From an uncultured Clostridia bacterium (lineage in GTDB: Bacteria > Bacillota > Clostridia > Peptostreptococcales > Anaerovoracaceae), in contig CAMIWY010000001.1 in the NCBI GenBank assembly GCA_946402595.1, positions 1 through 27,367 of the forward strand: 27,367 bases of DNA, read 5' to 3'. Position 1 is the first letter of the stretch. Each line of letters starts with the position of its first letter. Shown in pieces: positions 2,456 through 7,764 of this stretch. Under the pieces are notes generated by a model. The model was given only the letters and a program-made list of their open reading frames with translations, did not search any database and was not told the origin of the DNA. The position numbers were made by a program, and so were the translations under genes.

Positions 2456-3454
2456 TTATTTATATTCCTGTTTTCTAGGTCTTCCCATCAGTGTCTCCAG
2501 GGCATCCTCAACTCTGATGTTGCCCTGGATGACATTGTAGATGGCCTCGGTGATAGGCATCTCTACGCCGGCTCTCTTGGAGAGCTCGTAAGCTGCCTCT
2601 GCAGTGAACATTCCCTCAACTACCATGCCGATGGACTTGCGTGCCTCCTCAGGATCCATACCCTGGCCGATGAGGCGTCCGCATCTGAAGTTGCGGGAGT
2701 GCATGCTGGTGCAGGTAACGATCATGTCGCCGACACCTGAGAGACCTGCGAAGGTCTCGAATTTTGCACCAAGTGCCATTCCGAGACGGGTCATCTCTGC
2801 GATGCCTCTTGTCATCATGGCTGCTCTTGTGTTGTCGCCGAATCCCATGCCGTCGATGATTCCTGAACCAACAGCCATTACGTTCTTGACTGAACCTGCG
2901 AGCTCCATGCCGAGCATGTCGTCGTTGGTGTAGATTCTGAATCTGTGTGTCGAGAAGAGATCGCTTATCGATCTTGCCGTGCGAGGGTCTCTGGAAGAAA
3001 CGGATACTGCTGTCGGTACGCCGATGCCGACTTCCTCAGCGTGAGACGGCCCGGAGATGCATGCGTATCTGTTCATGTCGAAGCCGACTTCCTCAGCGAC
3101 CTCGGACATTCTCATGAGGGTCTTCTGCTCGATACCCTTTGCGATGTTCATTGCGAGGGCGTCTTCCTTGATGAAAGGCATTGCGGACTTCAGCGCTGCT
3201 CTGAAGTGCTGTGCAGGAATCGAGAAAACGACGATGTCTGCGTCCTTCAGTGCTGCTTCGTTGTCTGTGTAGAAGTGATAATCACCTTCAAGCTTGACGC
3301 CCGGGAGATAGTCTGTGTTCTCCATTGCCGCTTCCATGCGGTCGAGGTGGGCCTTGTCGATATCGAAGATGTTGACTGTGCAGCCCTTGGCTGCAACGAT
3401 TGTTGAAAGTGCGGTGCCGAAGCTTCCGGCGCCTATGAATGTAACGGTGCTCAT
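2456..3454 (-). CDS. gpsA: NAD(P)H-dependent glycerol-3-phosphate dehydrogenase
   Basis: Start moved to ATG 3454 (MSTVTFIGAGSFGTAL, RBS AGGAGG). Rossmann GAGSFG, ISGPSHAEEV, KNVMAVGSG, GLSGVGDMIVTCTS.HSRN motifs. Confidence 0.95.
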   Translation of the reverse strand: MSTVTFIGAGSFGTALSTIVAAKGCTVNIFDIDKAHLDRMEAAMENTDYLPGVKLEGDYHFYTDNEAALKDADIVVFSIPAQHFRAALKSAMPFIKEDALAMNIAKGIEQKTLMRMSEVAEEVGFDMNRYACISGPSHAEEVGIGVPTAVSVSSRDPRTARSISDLFSTHRFRIYTNDDMLGMELAGSVKNVMAVGSGIIDGMGFGDNTRAAMMTRGIAEMTRLGMALGAKFETFAGLSGVGDMIVTCTSMHSRNFRCGRLIGQGMDPEEARKSIGMVVEGMFTAEAAYELSKRAGVEMPITEAIYNVIQGNIRVEDALETLMGRPRKQEYK

Positions 3455-3514
3455 AATCAGCCTCCTGATGAATTCATTTTGATGCGATAAGTCAGAGGAG
3501 TATTCCTGCTGGCA

Positions 3515-3551
3515 AAAGATGACAACGAGAACCGTCCCCAATGTCATCTTT
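3515..3551. repeat. ACCGTCCC-loop hairpin repeat, copy 1
   Basis: AAAGATGACA / TGTCATCTTT arms around a 17-nt spacer ACGAGAACCGTCCCCAA. Confidence 0.75.
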
Positions 3552-3554
3552 CGA

Positions 3555-3583
3555 ATTATACAGGGTTTTGGGAGGAGTGACAA
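3555..3583 (-). promoter_or_regulatory. sigma-A promoter for gpsA (and probably tRNA-Arg)
   Basis: Minus strand TTGTCA (3583-3578), 17 nt, TATAAT (3560-3555). Confidence 0.75.
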
Positions 3584-3606
3584 GTGTGAGGGCACTTTGA
3601 CAGGGT

Positions 3607-3639
3607 ATGTGTCAAAAAGGACCGTCCCTGTTGACACAT
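3607..3639. repeat. ACCGTCCC-loop hairpin repeat, copy 2
   Basis: ATGTGTCAA / TTGACACAT arms around AAAGGACCGTCCCTG; 23 nt identical to the copy at 21023. Confidence 0.8.
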
Positions 3640-3646
3640 CATGTCA

Positions 3647-3675
3647 TAGGCATGGGAAAGTATTTGTGCTAAAAT
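3647..3675 (+). promoter_or_regulatory. Candidate extended -10 promoter for the phosphatase gene
   Basis: TAGGCA (3647-3652), 17 nt, TAAAAT (3670-3675) preceded by TG-N (TGC). Confidence 0.45.
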
Positions 3676-3682
3676 GATTGCC

Positions 3683-4309
3683 ATGGAACAGATTTTATAC
3701 CTGATAAGACATGGACATACGTCGGGGACGAGGAGTGACCTCTTCTACGGCGCGACTGATCTGCCGATCACTGAAGACGGCTACATGGAAGTCGAATCGT
3801 TTGCTGCGGACGGGGTGTATCCGGATCCTGAGGGAGCTTCTGTATGGACTTCGGGCATGCTGAGGACGGAGCAGACTCTGAATGCGATGTACGGTGACAT
3901 AGAGCACAGTCATGAGCCTCTGCTGAAGGAGATAAACCTGGGCAAGTTCGAGATGAAGACCTACAGCGAGATCATGGAGGACGACTACGGCCGCGCCTGG
4001 CTCAGCGGTGAGCTTGAGACTCTGTCTTTCGAGGGCGGTGACAGCCACGAGAGCTTCAACAGGCGCGTGACTGAAGGCGTATGGAACATTCTCCGCGAGG
4101 CTGAAAAGGCGGGTAAAGACAAAGTCATCGCCGTACTTCATGGTGCGGTCATAACCTATCTGATGTACAACGCTTTTCCGGAACAGTACACGGACATGTG
4201 GATGTGGACTCCTAATCCGGGAACAGGGTACAAGGTGACCGTAAGAGAAGGCAGGCCTGTCTCCTGGACGACGGTCGGCGAGACGGGTGAGAGGGTCGTG
4301 CCGCTGTAG
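3683..4309 (+). CDS. Histidine phosphatase family protein (phosphoglycerate mutase/CobC-like)
   Basis: LIRHGHT catalytic motif, S...RT.QT, L.EINLG.FE, FEGG.S, and second His in VLHGAVI. Start is 3683 (preferred) or 3674. Confidence 0.88.
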   Translation: MEQILYLIRHGHTSGTRSDLFYGATDLPITEDGYMEVESFAADGVYPDPEGASVWTSGMLRTEQTLNAMYGDIEHSHEPLLKEINLGKFEMKTYSEIMEDDYGRAWLSGELETLSFEGGDSHESFNRRVTEGVWNILREAEKAGKDKVIAVLHGAVITYLMYNAFPEQYTDMWMWTPNPGTGYKVTVREGRPVSWTTVGETGERVVPL

Positions 4310-4362
4310 ATTCTTAGGGGATCTCATGAGATGGGCAAAACGACTGCAGGGTCAGGTTTCTG

Positions 4363-5055
4363 ATGATAGAACTTAACGACAACGCAATTGAATACATGCA
4401 GCGCCTCGGGTTCCGCGACCTCATACTCGGTGCGGAGAAGTTCACCACCTGATGCGATCCTCCGAGGATGGAGGTGTCGGTGAGTTTCACCGACGGGAGC
4501 AGGGAGCTGAATGAAGAAGGCGCAAAATACAGTCTGGATGAGACGTTACTTGGCAGAGCCTGGATTCCGCTCGAAGGCCTTATACTAACACCGCCGGTGA
4601 GGGTGAGATATGAAAAACACCCGTGGATCGAGGCTTTTGAGTTTGACGGGGTCAGGGCTGCTCCGGCAAAACGCAAGGGCATCGGGACCAAGGGCGCAAA
4701 AGGCTTCGTGAGGTCACTCAGCACGATCTATTCAGGTGCTTACGATGACTACCGCACATTCGGAGGAGATGAAAACTTCGACGCAGCCGGATACTTCAGA
4801 CATGCGGCAGAACATTTTGCCCGCATGGCAGAGGATGACGGCAGACGTAAGATGGCTGCAAAGTTCTGCGGCTTTGCTGAGAACATGTGGCGTGAGGGCG
4901 ACCGGGAGATGCTGGACATATGCATGGATGCTGTTATCCCCGTCCTTAAAGAAAATGTTTACATGAGAGCGGTCCTGGACGATACTATAACTGAAGAGTT
5001 CCGCAAATACCTAGAGGTAAACGGATCGGCAAACAATATACTGGAAGCAAATTAG
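4363..5055 (+). CDS. Putative selenoprotein, 230 aa: N-terminal U-C motif domain plus helical C-terminal domain
   Basis: ATG 4363 is in frame with the 4468 ORF: MIELNDNAIEYMQRLGFRDLILGAEKFTT-UGA(4450-4452)-CDPPRMEVSV... SECIS-like hairpin at 4476-4494. The coding status of 4468-5055 is firm; UGA readthrough is inferred. Confidence 0.6.
4476..4494 (+). promoter_or_regulatory. Candidate bacterial SECIS hairpin
   Basis: Perfect 8-bp stem GTCGGTGA/TCACCGAC with a GUU apical loop starting 31 nt after the in-frame UGA. Confidence 0.5.
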
Positions 5056-5069
5056 CAGGAGAGAGAATC

Positions 5070-5642
5070 ATGGCTTCGAAGAAGAACAAAAGAGAATTAA
5101 AGTTCACGCTCAATGACAATGACTATAAGGCCTTCGGCAAGTACCGCATACTGTACACTGAACAGGGACATAAGATGGTCAGAAGGCAGAGGCTGACATA
5201 TCTGTTCGGTGCAGCGATGATCGCCCTCCTGTTTACTGTATTCAAAGTGGAGCAGAGCAGCTTCAGGTACCTTATGTATATCATAGCAGGCGCTTTGGCT
5301 GTAGTGGGTATTTTCTTCGCGGAGGCCCTCGTGCTGAGACAGCAGGACAAAGCGATAGAGGCATCCGCCAACACCGCAGAGAGAGTCAACGCCGGTGAGA
5401 ACACGGTCAGGTTCGATGATGACACTTTCACCACATCCGGCAACGGGGATGATCAGGTGTTTAAATACAGTGACATCAAGCTGATCGATCTTACGGAAGA
5501 AGCCATATATGTATGGATGAGCGACACTATGATCATGCCGCTGCCGCTGCACGCCTTCAGAGGTATGGAAGAGATGAAGGAACTCTGCAAGTGGCTCAGG
5601 GCAAAAGTCGATGAGCAGAACGGAGAGGGCAAAGCTGAATAG
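5070..5642 (+). CDS. YcxB family membrane protein
   Basis: Two N-terminal TM helices, then a PH-like YcxB segment (..F.Y..IK.I..TEEAIYVW......PLP..AF). RBS GGAGAG. Confidence 0.75.
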   Translation: MASKKNKRELKFTLNDNDYKAFGKYRILYTEQGHKMVRRQRLTYLFGAAMIALLFTVFKVEQSSFRYLMYIIAGALAVVGIFFAEALVLRQQDKAIEASANTAERVNAGENTVRFDDDTFTTSGNGDDQVFKYSDIKLIDLTEEAIYVWMSDTMIMPLPLHAFRGMEEMKELCKWLRAKVDEQNGEGKAE

Positions 5643-5741
5643 CATGTGCCGCACCCGCAGCTTGTTTGTAAGATTTCACTAACAACGCTGGATGGCGGTG
5701 TTGTTCGTTGTGAAAAACAACAACAAAATCGCGAAAAGTTG

Positions 5742-5770
5742 TTGACATAACTCAACAAGGTTGCTATATT
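5742..5770 (+). promoter_or_regulatory. sigma-A promoter of the met leader-metNIQ operon
   Basis: TTGACA (5742-5747), 17 nt, TATATT (5765-5770); start site expected near 5777-5778. Confidence 0.85.
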
Positions 5771-5823
5771 ACACTCTAGACGGGAGATAATCCCACCTTA
5801 TTCTATGAAAGGAGCACATTCAC

Positions 5824-5892
5824 ATGACAGGAAGAAGCATGATGATGGAAATGGGAATGATGGGCATGTGCATGTGCAGAGCCGATGAATAG
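5824..5892 (+). CDS. Met-rich leader peptide MTGRSMMMEMGMMGMCMCRADE (22 aa; 9 Met, 2 Cys)
   Basis: Strong RBS AAAGGAG (5808-5814) 9 nt before ATG 5824; stop TAG 5890-5892; lies between the promoter and terminator upstream of metN. Confidence 0.85.
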   Translation: MTGRSMMMEMGMMGMCMCRADE

Positions 5893-5901
5893 CATAGGAT
5901 A

Positions 5902-5967
5902 AGGTCATAACGAAGCCGACACTATGAGTTTTCTCATGTATCATACCGGGGCAGGTCGTTAGGACCT
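5902..5967 (+). promoter_or_regulatory. Candidate antiterminator helix of the met attenuator
   Basis: Hand pairing: AGGTC 5902-06/GACCT 5963-67; TAACGA 5908-13/TCGTTA 5956-61; GCC 5915-17/GGC 5950-52; TATGA 5923-27/TCATA 5941-45. Overlaps and excludes the terminator. Confidence 0.65.
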
Positions 5968-5978
5968 GCCCCGGTTTT
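5945..5978 (+). terminator. Attenuator terminator upstream of metN
   Basis: Perfect 13-bp stem ACCGGGGCAGGTC/GACCTGCCCCGGT, GTTAG loop, short T tract (5975-5978). Confidence 0.85.
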
Positions 5979-6031
5979 CGTAAGATAATCATTTCACTGA
6001 TCAGTAGAAGGCAAAGGCAGAGGTAAAGAAA

Positions 6032-7102
6032 TTGAGTGACTGTATTATCAGCCTGCAGGGAGTGACCAAGGAATTCGGTACCAAGGGCGGCAAGGTTGTC
6101 GCGCTGAGGGACATAAACCTGGATATCGAGAGAGGCGACTCCTTCGGCATCATAGGACTTTCCGGAGCGGGGAAGTCGACCCTCGTGAGGACCATCAATC
6201 TTCTCGAGCAGCCCACGGAGGGCAAAGTCCTGTTTGACGGAAACGTTCTGACGGGTCTCAGGAGCAGAGATCTCAATCTGCACAGGCGCAAGATATCCAT
6301 GATTTTCCAGCAGTTCAACCTGCTGATGCAGAGGGACGCCATTGGAAATATCTGCTTCCCGATGGAGATAGCAGGGGTTCCGAAGGCGGAGGCAAGAGCC
6401 CGTGCTGAAGAACTTCTCAAGGTAGTTGATCTTGAGGACAGGGCGCACTCGTTCCCGTCGCAGCTGTCAGGAGGACAGAAGCAGAGAGTGGCGATCGCGA
6501 GAGCTCTTGCATCGGATCCTGAAGTCATACTTTGTGACGAGGCAACATCGGCTCTCGACCCTAAGACTACACGTTCTATACTGAAGCTGCTGAGGCAGAT
6601 CAATGAAGAGCGAGGAATCACACTGGTGGTCATCACTCACGAGATGGGAGTCATCAAGCAGCTCTGCAACAAGGTCGCAGTTATAGAAAACGGTGAGATC
6701 GTGGAGCAGGGGGATGTGGACGAAGTGTTCACCAAGCCTAAGACAAGAGCGGCGCGCAAGCTGTTCTTCCCTGACAGCGAGGACAGAGAGACCGCTGAGA
6801 CGAGAACGGCAACGAAGAACAGGCTGAGGCTCGTATTCAATGAGAAGACGGCATACAAACCGATCATCTCGAACATGATCCTCGAGACGGGTGAACCGGT
6901 CAACCTGCTGTATGCAAATCTGGATGCTCTTCTCGATGAGCAGATAGGACAGATGGTCATCTGTCTGTCGGATAATAAGGAAGCGGCAGAGAGACAGAAA
7001 GCGTACCTCATCAAGGAGGGCGTGGACTTTACAGAAATACCGGAGGATTCAGACTACTATGACTATCCTCTGCACGGATTCGGAGAGGAGGTGACAGAGT
7101 AA
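6032..7102 (+). CDS. metN: Methionine ABC transporter ATP-binding protein
   Basis: GLSGAGKST Walker A, LSGGQKQRVAIARALA signature, LCDEATSALDP, ITHEM, C-terminal NIL-type domain. TTG start with GAGGT RBS; the stop overlaps the metI start (TAATG). Confidence 0.95.
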   Translation: MSDCIISLQGVTKEFGTKGGKVVALRDINLDIERGDSFGIIGLSGAGKSTLVRTINLLEQPTEGKVLFDGNVLTGLRSRDLNLHRRKISMIFQQFNLLMQRDAIGNICFPMEIAGVPKAEARARAEELLKVVDLEDRAHSFPSQLSGGQKQRVAIARALASDPEVILCDEATSALDPKTTRSILKLLRQINEERGITLVVITHEMGVIKQLCNKVAVIENGEIVEQGDVDEVFTKPKTRAARKLFFPDSEDRETAETRTATKNRLRLVFNEKTAYKPIISNMILETGEPVNLLYANLDALLDEQIGQMVICLSDNKEAAERQKAYLIKEGVDFTEIPEDSDYYDYPLHGFGEEVTE

Positions 7103-7764
7103 TGGATACAGGCACATTGGTATCATTACTGGGAGAAGGCCTTCTCCAGACACTGTACATGACAGTGCTCGGAACACTGATGTCATATGTGATCGGACTT
7201 CCGATTGGAGTCTCACTCATAGTCACCGGACCTAACGGTATAAGACCGGTAGCCATATATAACAAGGTGATGGGCTTCATCGTCAACGTAATAAGATCCG
7301 TACCTTTCCTCATACTGATGATCGCCCTGATGCCGTACATCAGGAAGGTGATCGGCACCGGCATCGGAACCAGCGCAACGACAGCAGCACTCGTGGTAGC
7401 GGCAGCGCCGTTTGTGGCAAGGCTGGTGGAGCAGTCACTGCTCGAGGTAGATCCGGGAGTCATCGAGGCAGCGCAGGCGATGGGCGCCGGCAACTTCCAG
7501 ATAATACGCAAAGTCCTGCTTCTTGAGGCAAGGCCGTCTCTTCTGAACGGAGCGGCGGTCGCGACTATCAATATCCTCGGCTACTCCGCAATGGCGGGAA
7601 TAGTCGGAGGCGGCGGACTCGGCGACCTGGCCATCAGATACGGACTGTACAGATTCCAGCCGTCGATCATGTGGATCACGATAATCGTCCTCGTCATACT
7701 GGTGCAGATACTGCAGGAAGCAGGCATCAGATTAGCGGCCAGAATGGACAACAGGATAAACTAG
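7102..7764 (+). CDS. metI: Methionine ABC transporter permease
   Basis: LLQTLYMT, VNVIRSVPFLILMIAL, ARLVEQSLLEVDPGVIEAAQAMGA, GYSAMAGIVGGGGLGDLAIRYG motifs. Confidence 0.95.
   Translation: MDTGTLVSLLGEGLLQTLYMTVLGTLMSYVIGLPIGVSLIVTGPNGIRPVAIYNKVMGFIVNVIRSVPFLILMIALMPYIRKVIGTGIGTSATTAALVVAAAPFVARLVEQSLLEVDPGVIEAAQAMGAGNFQIIRKVLLLEARPSLLNGAAVATINILGYSAMAGIVGGGGLGDLAIRYGLYRFQPSIMWITIIVLVILVQILQEAGIRLAARMDNRIN

Follow-up and report, generated by a model that had tools for sequence, protein, structure and literature searches.

In bacterial selenocysteine (Sec) decoding, SelB acts at a hairpin located 3′ of the UGA codon, the selenocysteine insertion sequence (SECIS) element. The A-type carriers IscA, SufA and HesB hold C-terminal Cys-x-Cys ligands. 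Described selenoproteins with which a Sec-containing protein of this fold can be compared include the CC/Se-type selenoproteins, listed in a 2026 review (PMC13188914), and the HesB-like selenoprotein TIGR01911 (HesB_rel_seleno), which carries the motif UxGP (PMC13188914; Zhang et al. 2006, PMC1794560). By published criteria, a bacterial SECIS element has a loop of 3–9 nucleotides (nt) with a G in the first two loop positions, a stem of 4–16 base pairs (bp), a UGA-to-loop distance of 16–37 nt and a minimum free energy of −7.5 kcal/mol or lower (PMC13188914). Here we analyse a 27,367-nt stretch of DNA from an uncultured Clostridia bacterium of the family Anaerovoracaceae (GCA_946402595.1, contig CAMIWY010000001.1; ‘the window’), and argue with high confidence that positions 4363–5055 form one gene, predicted from its sequence to encode a 230-residue selenoprotein in which UGA 4450 specifies Sec.

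Conservation of the in-frame TGA

The gene (4363–5055, plus strand, as are all features of the window described below unless stated otherwise) comprises 230 codons and a TAG stop (5053–5055). Reading of the sequence confirmed the layout given in a preliminary description of this DNA: 29 codons from the start ATG at 4363 (4363–4449) run to a single TGA (4450–4452), read here as Sec30, which is followed by the TGC codon (4453–4455) of Cys31, its partner in the U-C dipeptide, and by the rest of the open reading frame (ORF) that begins at ATG 4468. The 195-residue ORF that an ORF finder places at ATG 4468 is in the same frame as 4363–5055. The dipeptide lies in the motif U-C-D-P-P of the window protein, and both its Cys31 and the two prolines that follow, P33 and P34, are invariant in the alignment of relatives.

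We compared 35 loci: six found by protein search, 28 found by a DNA scan of GTDB species (one genome per species) and the window’s own. The scanned loci are labelled Anaerovoracaceae, Mogibacterium, Baileyella intestinalis and Candidatus Crickella, and include the M. pumilum ATCC 700696 chromosome, M. timidum ATCC 33093 and M. kristiansenii. In all 35 loci the column is TGA followed by TGC or TGT (TGA-TG[CT]), and in none is it a sense codon. When 301 genomes from the same order were searched with stops read through, five others, all of the same family, were found to encode the protein, each with exactly one TGA, and 16 loci of GTDB species match the full-length frame (residues 1–217/226), again with one TGA each; identity among the TGA-bearing relatives goes down to approximately 30%. 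The start, M-[IV]-x-L-N-x-x-A, is found 28–30 codons before the TGA in all loci, and the domain is invariant at positions that include C30(U), C31, P33, P34, E37, V40, F42, Y83, P87 and W88. The TGA and the protein sequence on both sides of it are therefore conserved together, which is what the preliminary description had expected of a genuine Sec codon. In the 13 codons before the TGA, divergence is 0.64 at third codon positions as compared to 0.34 and 0.36 at positions one and two; since third positions are about twice as divergent as first and second ones, this stretch is translated in the frame that leads into the TGA.

The strongest rival to the selenoprotein gene, although a very unlikely one, is that the UGA is a true stop that separates a 29-codon upstream ORF from a 195-residue protein initiated at ATG 4468. 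Gene callers do report 195- and 140-residue products along with stray 29-residue peptides (P0162), UGA-U is a good termination context, and the GGAGG at 4470–4474 resembles a Shine–Dalgarno site. However, this GGAGG is located after ATG 4468 rather than before it and is paired in a hairpin (hairpin 1, see below), while the 29 codons before the UGA and the five codons between it and 4468 are all conserved as protein, with a coding pattern of substitution. Furthermore, Met 4468, the start chosen by gene callers, is Leu, Pro or Ala in relatives, which share no start downstream of the UGA; homologues that begin at this Met were named in the preliminary description as grounds for abandoning the Sec assignment. 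Finally, without its first 35 residues the predicted domain would lose a helix and a strand, and it is the full N-terminal domain that aligns end to end with the CC/Se family.

Our first searches returned one database protein, P0065 (42% identical), whose sequence runs across the site; it had been called with TGA read as Trp. When 1.8 billion representative proteins were searched with a profile, the search yielded truncated products, 29-residue N-terminal fragments (such as P0162) and products with ‘W’ at the Sec column; at the DNA level, this ‘W’ is TGA. Cys is the usual counterpart of Sec in homologues. Cys at this column, another feature by which the preliminary description proposed to recognise a Sec codon, was found in distant relatives only: as Cys-Cys in P0128, P0142 and P0144, and as a single Cys in P0118 and P0168.

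Three individual sequences depart from this pattern or extend it. In P0124, a 58-residue metagenome fragment with an internal deletion, Arg occupies the Sec column (I-T-S-R-C-A-P-P); the sequence may reflect decay of the copy (TGA to CGA) or an error in sequencing. The product called on a metagenome contig (L089:34–387, P0083) contains an additional in-frame TGA, which precedes the conserved one at codon 9 and might reflect a miscalled start or encode another Sec. Another metagenome contig carries two paralogues in tandem (L090:298–597 and 622–918) that belong to a more distant family with the IscA fold, each with an in-frame TGA (S-S-U-G-G and N-T-U-C-G, respectively).

A covarying hairpin downstream of the UGA

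The putative SECIS element of the gene, which we refer to as hairpin 2 (4475–4495), consists of an 8-bp stem (4476–4483/4487–4494) extended by a U-G pair (4475/4495) and capped by the apical loop GUU (4484–4486), with exactly 31 nt between the A of the UGA and the loop. Folded alone, it has a free energy of −12.6 kcal/mol (z = −5.3 versus dinucleotide shuffles). The hairpin announced in the preliminary description – 8 bp, a G-led GUU loop, 31 nt past the UGA – is thus present, and its loop, its stem of 8–9 bp, its distance from the UGA and its energy are all within the published limits for bacterial SECIS elements (PMC13188914).

Hairpin 2 also covaries. In an ungapped alignment of 29 distinct sequences covering 66 nt around the UGA, its positions are paired in 98.7% of cells, no pair is invariant and at five of the eight pairs both sides have changed. 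None of 500 shuffles matches hairpin 2 in the percentage paired, the number of cells changed on both sides, the further pair types or the covariation score, while the count of pairs changed on both sides is reached by 9 of the 500; slid controls all fall far below it. The RNAalifold consensus recovers both hairpins unguided. Three of the covarying pairs (columns 36–54, 39–51 and 42–48) join third codon positions. At 39–51 and 42–48, G-C and A-U replace one another without altering the residue encoded on either side, while at 36–54 the residue of the 5′ codon varies (Val, Met or Ile). Selection on the protein cannot explain these changes, and hairpin 2 offers a clean case of RNA-level selection at synonymous sites within a coding region. 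The first loop position is G in all sequences and the second is U in most. A hairpin that resembles hairpin 2, over the same coding motif, follows the second UGA of the distant relative L090. An Rfam scan of positions 4200–5200 at E ≤ 10 returned chance-level matches only and no SECIS family.

A second hairpin, hairpin 1 (4459–4474), is located directly 5′ of hairpin 2: CCUCC (4459–4463) pairs with GGAGG (4470–4474) around a 6-nt loop. The preliminary description had cast it as a competitor of the GUU hairpin, a view that we do not share, as the two adjoin one another, hairpin 1 is itself conserved, and both are present in the fold of lowest energy (−20.7 kcal/mol) as well as in the consensus computed by RNAalifold. 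Its four inner pairs are invariant in all 29 sequences, and because these pairs never vary, no covariation is seen. The fixed positions include third codon positions, namely the U of the first Pro codon and the G of the codon before Glu (which encodes Met, Leu, Pro or Ala), while a neighbouring third position in the loop is free to vary. At the divergent locus L070 the sequence at this site is different and still forms a hairpin. We regard hairpin 1 as a conserved RNA feature. Like the TGA and the residues that flank it, both hairpins turn up again at each of the related loci that we examined, which chance alone would not produce.

Selenocysteine machinery of the source genome

Absence of selABCD from the genome was named in the preliminary description as a finding that would count against a selenoprotein. 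All four are present: selA, selB, selD and the gene for tRNA-Sec (selC) each score above the family cut-offs in the window’s genome. The selD gene (C69:415–1359, L001) is a selenoprotein gene itself, with one in-frame TGA, located in a G-G-U-G motif; a hairpin begins 11 nt past this UGA. There are two tRNA-Sec genes (C55:3034–3127, minus strand, and C35:4330–4423, plus strand; L014 and L015), which score 69.5 and 68.1 bits, are identical at 93 of 94 positions and reflect either a real duplication or the presence of two strains in the assembly; one of them adjoins selA/selB.

These results bear on the possibility, to which we give a slimmer chance than to a true stop, that the UGA is read not as Sec but as Trp, Cys or Gly, through a reassigned code or near-cognate suppression. 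Some metagenome gene calls do give Trp under an alternative code. These calls, however, are choices made by software, and TGA serves as the stop of three of the 20 long ORFs in the window; since it ends ordinary genes there, the code is not reassigned. The genome has a dedicated Sec pathway, a covarying SECIS-type hairpin follows the codon and the aligned residue in relatives is Cys, all of which argue against a standard residue. As a separate observation on the same 20 ORFs, 12 of them end in TAG, the most frequent stop codon by a wide margin, and TGA is the rarest.

An error of assembly, a nonsense mutation confined to this strain or a pseudogene would be other ways to account for the TGA, all of them implausible to the point of being negligible, even for a genome as fragmented as this one, because the TGA is conserved in more than 30 independent assemblies – among the 35 loci are some from complete or isolate genomes, namely the M. 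pumilum chromosome, M. timidum, M. kristiansenii and Baileyella intestinalis – and purifying selection is evident on both sides of it.

The N-terminal domain has a predicted IscA/HesB fold

Residues 1–102 (4363–4668) form a beta-rich, CC/Se-like domain with a predicted IscA/HesB fold, as indicated by AlphaFold2, Foldseek and hhalign. No NCBIfam model matches the read-through protein, no match to PF28096 is on record for the full-length relatives, and only two of seven relatives touch the CC/Se model NF041239, at E 0.05. By contrast, hhalign aligns the N-terminal domain end to end with NF041239 members (97.5% probability, E 6.8e-12, 89 columns), placing the U-C dipeptide on the motif of the family; the members used for comparison are true ones from genomes of the same class, mostly with one TGA. 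The CC/Se family is in turn linked to TIGR01911 (hhalign 87%, E 3.9e-6), which provides a transitive link to the window domain. TIGR01911 as the direct parent family was rejected, with an hhalign probability of 0.2% and no hidden Markov model (HMM) match. Judged by these profile comparisons, the N-terminal domain is a remote relative of the CC/Se family and not a member of it by the cut-offs of NF041239 or TIGR01911. The HesB-like, CC/Se-type likeness that the preliminary description had recognised is therefore upheld as remote homology and as an IscA/SufA fold, while scores remain below the cut-offs of both families.

The AlphaFold2 model of the N-terminal domain, built from a 28-sequence alignment, is a confident one, with a predicted local distance difference test score (pLDDT) of 87.2, and places Sec30-Cys31 in the loop that joins the second strand (19–27) to the third (35–43); one helix and one strand of the model come from the first 35 residues. 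The top PDB matches in Foldseek are IscA (1s98, 1r94 and 1x0g; among them E. coli IscA and a cluster-bound IscA) and SufA (2d2a), with probability 1.00 and template modelling (TM) scores of 0.55–0.63 over approximately 100 residues. AlphaFold DB clusters named ‘FeS cluster biogenesis domain’ match with TM scores of up to 0.72, query and target both being predicted models in this comparison. At the level of sequence, the profile of the domain found nothing meaningful among the sequences of solved structures, and there is no match to Pfam PF01521. The domain, which ends in F-E-F-D-G, has no Cys in residues 32–102 and therefore lacks the C-terminal ligands of the A-type carriers.

C-terminal domain, fusions and gene context

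The remainder of the protein (residues 103–230, 4669–5052) is a predicted all-helical, DUF7674-like domain with a near-invariant F-C-G-F-x-E-N-M-W-R-E-G motif. The full-length AlphaFold2 model (pLDDT 91.9) has helices from residue 112 on, and the fused helical domain of about 120 residues noted in the preliminary description is thus recovered, now with a family likeness. The only Pfam match of the window protein is a weak one, to DUF7674 (PF24722; 14.7–16.5 bits, cut-off 27). Among 97 relatives, 31 match DUF7674 at E ≤ 0.01 (best 1.1e-7), and three relatives have a precomputed PF24722 match. When the full-length model was compared with the PDB by Foldseek, IscA/SufA matched the N-terminal domain and nothing matched the C-terminal one. 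Our literature search found no paper that mentions DUF7674.

The Sec domain comes in three architectures: alone (107–122 residues), fused to the DUF7674-like domain (214–251 residues), and fused to a C-terminal domain of 70 residues (175 residues in total). The 175-residue form was seen at L064:3001–3525, L065:3001–3525, L071:3001–3525 and L072:3001–3519 (Mogibacterium pumilum, M. diversum, M. timidum and Baileyella intestinalis). Its 70-residue domain matches winged-helix families consistently, although below threshold (HTH_27 in 10 of 18 members, MarR_2 with a best E of 1.8e-4, and DIP2311-like_C), while its profile found nothing meaningful among the sequences of solved structures. The 175-residue form may be a Sec-containing DNA-binding regulator. 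The public products of both fused forms are all truncated (195 and 140 residues) and are unnamed or called ‘hypothetical’.

In the window, the Sec gene is preceded by a gene of the histidine phosphatase family (3674–4309; Pfam His_Phos_1, E 2.3e-27), which is found upstream in 10 loci, and followed, 14 nt past its stop, by a gene for a YcxB-like membrane protein (5070–5642; Pfam YcxB, E 2.8e-5), which is found downstream in 11 loci and is probably co-transcribed with it. The order associated with the DUF7674 form – gpsA (minus strand), histidine phosphatase, Sec gene, YcxB-like gene, metN and metI, spanning 2456–7764 in the window – is kept in 10–16 related loci, the most divergent of which has a Sec protein with 41% identity. 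Since the carriers all belong to one bacterial family, this order may be inherited and need not reflect a functional link. Around the stand-alone and winged-helix forms lie unrelated housekeeping genes.

Discussion

Taken as a selenoprotein gene, 4363–5055 suggests the following course of events. A ribosome would reach UGA 4450, and hairpin 2 (4476–4494, with G-U in its apical loop, 31 nt downstream) would recruit SelB-GTP-Sec-tRNA(Sec), so that Sec would be inserted in place of termination. In the folded protein, the neighbouring selenol and thiol may form a redox-active selenenylsulfide couple or a soft-ligand site for a metal, an Fe-S cluster or a persulfide/perselenide. We favour such roles because a selenol beside a thiol is held in an exposed loop stiffened by Pro-Pro, in a fold that elsewhere holds Fe-S clusters. 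The fused C-terminal domain would then couple the state of the Sec-Cys pair to a partner or an output.

Several points weigh against parts of this account. Starting with translation and decoding, the ribosome-binding site before ATG 4363 is weak, as the preliminary description cautioned; the caveat holds for the window gene and its nearest relatives, and does not extend to more distant relatives, in which clear GGAGG/GAGG sites precede the same start. The source is a metagenome-assembled genome that is 74% complete and split into 336 contigs, and its selB match ends at position 363 of the 581 of the profile, so that the match does not establish an intact SECIS-binding part of SelB on that contig. 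As to family, the window protein has no match to NF041239 at E ≤ 10 (the model’s cut-off being 40 bits) and no HMM match to TIGR01911, and among the 35 loci examined no Cys form exists inside the subfamily, Cys being confined to distant relatives. As to function, the assignment of Sec30-Cys31 as a redox-active or metal-binding pair is one that we infer from the fold, the motif and the fusions; the gene neighbourhoods give no consistent functional clue; and Cys169, the most conserved Cys of the C-terminal domain, is present in 81 of 97 relatives and replaced in the other 16, and is therefore not an obligatory third ligand.

The fusions suggest a more specific, tentative idea. Because the Sec domain is fused before a probable DNA-binding domain in Mogibacterium, a sensing or input role comes to mind. 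It is possible, though we consider it unlikely, that the Sec-Cys domain with the IscA fold serves not as a carrier but as a portable module for sensing. Its selenol–thiol pair would respond to redox conditions or to a soft ligand (a metal, Fe-S, or a sulfur or selenium species) and hand this state on to whichever domain it is fused to: a DUF7674 domain in the window protein, and a winged-helix DNA-binding domain in M. pumilum, M. diversum, M. timidum and Baileyella. If this were true, the winged-helix form would act as a transcription factor of the one-component type with selenocysteine as its sensor residue. No such Sec-sensor transcription factor is described in the literature that we searched, the likeliest sources being outside that search, and none of the papers found connects a particular selenoprotein with Mogibacterium. 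Strains that carry the winged-helix fusions can be cultured, and both Sec insertion and the Sec-sensor idea are testable in them.

The selenoprotein reading adds an overlooked member to the selenoproteome of Anaerovoracaceae, a lineage of the gut, the rumen and the mouth that includes cultured Mogibacterium strains. Counts of selenoproteins and proteomic databases miss the protein, because the public records examined are truncated at the UGA. The CC/Se / IscA-fold selenoprotein superfamily extends past its curated models, and the recruitment of its Sec domain into multi-domain proteins offers a first handle on the function of the CC/Se family.

How does the locus compare with the systems already described? 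Hairpin 2, with a 3-nt loop that starts with G and then U, agrees with the consensus of Zhang and Gladyshev for bacterial SECIS elements (as given in Fig. 2 of PMC13188914); the invariant hairpin of 4–5 bp (CCUCC/GGAGG) that the locus has in addition, between the UGA and the SECIS stem, is no requirement of that model. With the A-type carriers IscA/SufA/HesB (PF01521), the N-terminal domain shares the predicted fold, while a sequence-level match and the C-terminal Cys-x-Cys are both absent. With the HesB-like selenoprotein TIGR01911, it shares a small IscA/HesB-related domain in which Sec is located in the loop after the second strand and is followed by Pro, although the motif there is U-x-G-P as compared to U-C-x-P-P in the window family. 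The closest likeness is to the CC/Se family (NF041239/PF28096): the order of secondary structure elements, the Sec or Cys beside a second Cys in the same loop, the UGA with its downstream hairpin and the occurrence in anaerobic Clostridia are all shared. While CC/Se proteins are single domains of approximately 100 residues, the window protein has 230 residues in two domains, and its subfamily is set apart by the signature T/S-U-C-[AD]-P-P, S-V-x-F-T-D and R-Y-E-x-x-P-W, by an extra segment after strand 3, and by fusion of the Sec domain to a DUF7674-like domain or, in Mogibacterium, to a probable winged-helix domain. What is new is an Anaerovoracaceae-wide subfamily outside the curated models, with Sec at every examined locus, together with its domain fusions and the arrangement of two hairpins after the UGA. 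It forms a divergent branch, with two domains, of a selenoprotein family already known by prediction: a solid extension of that family and not a revolutionary one.

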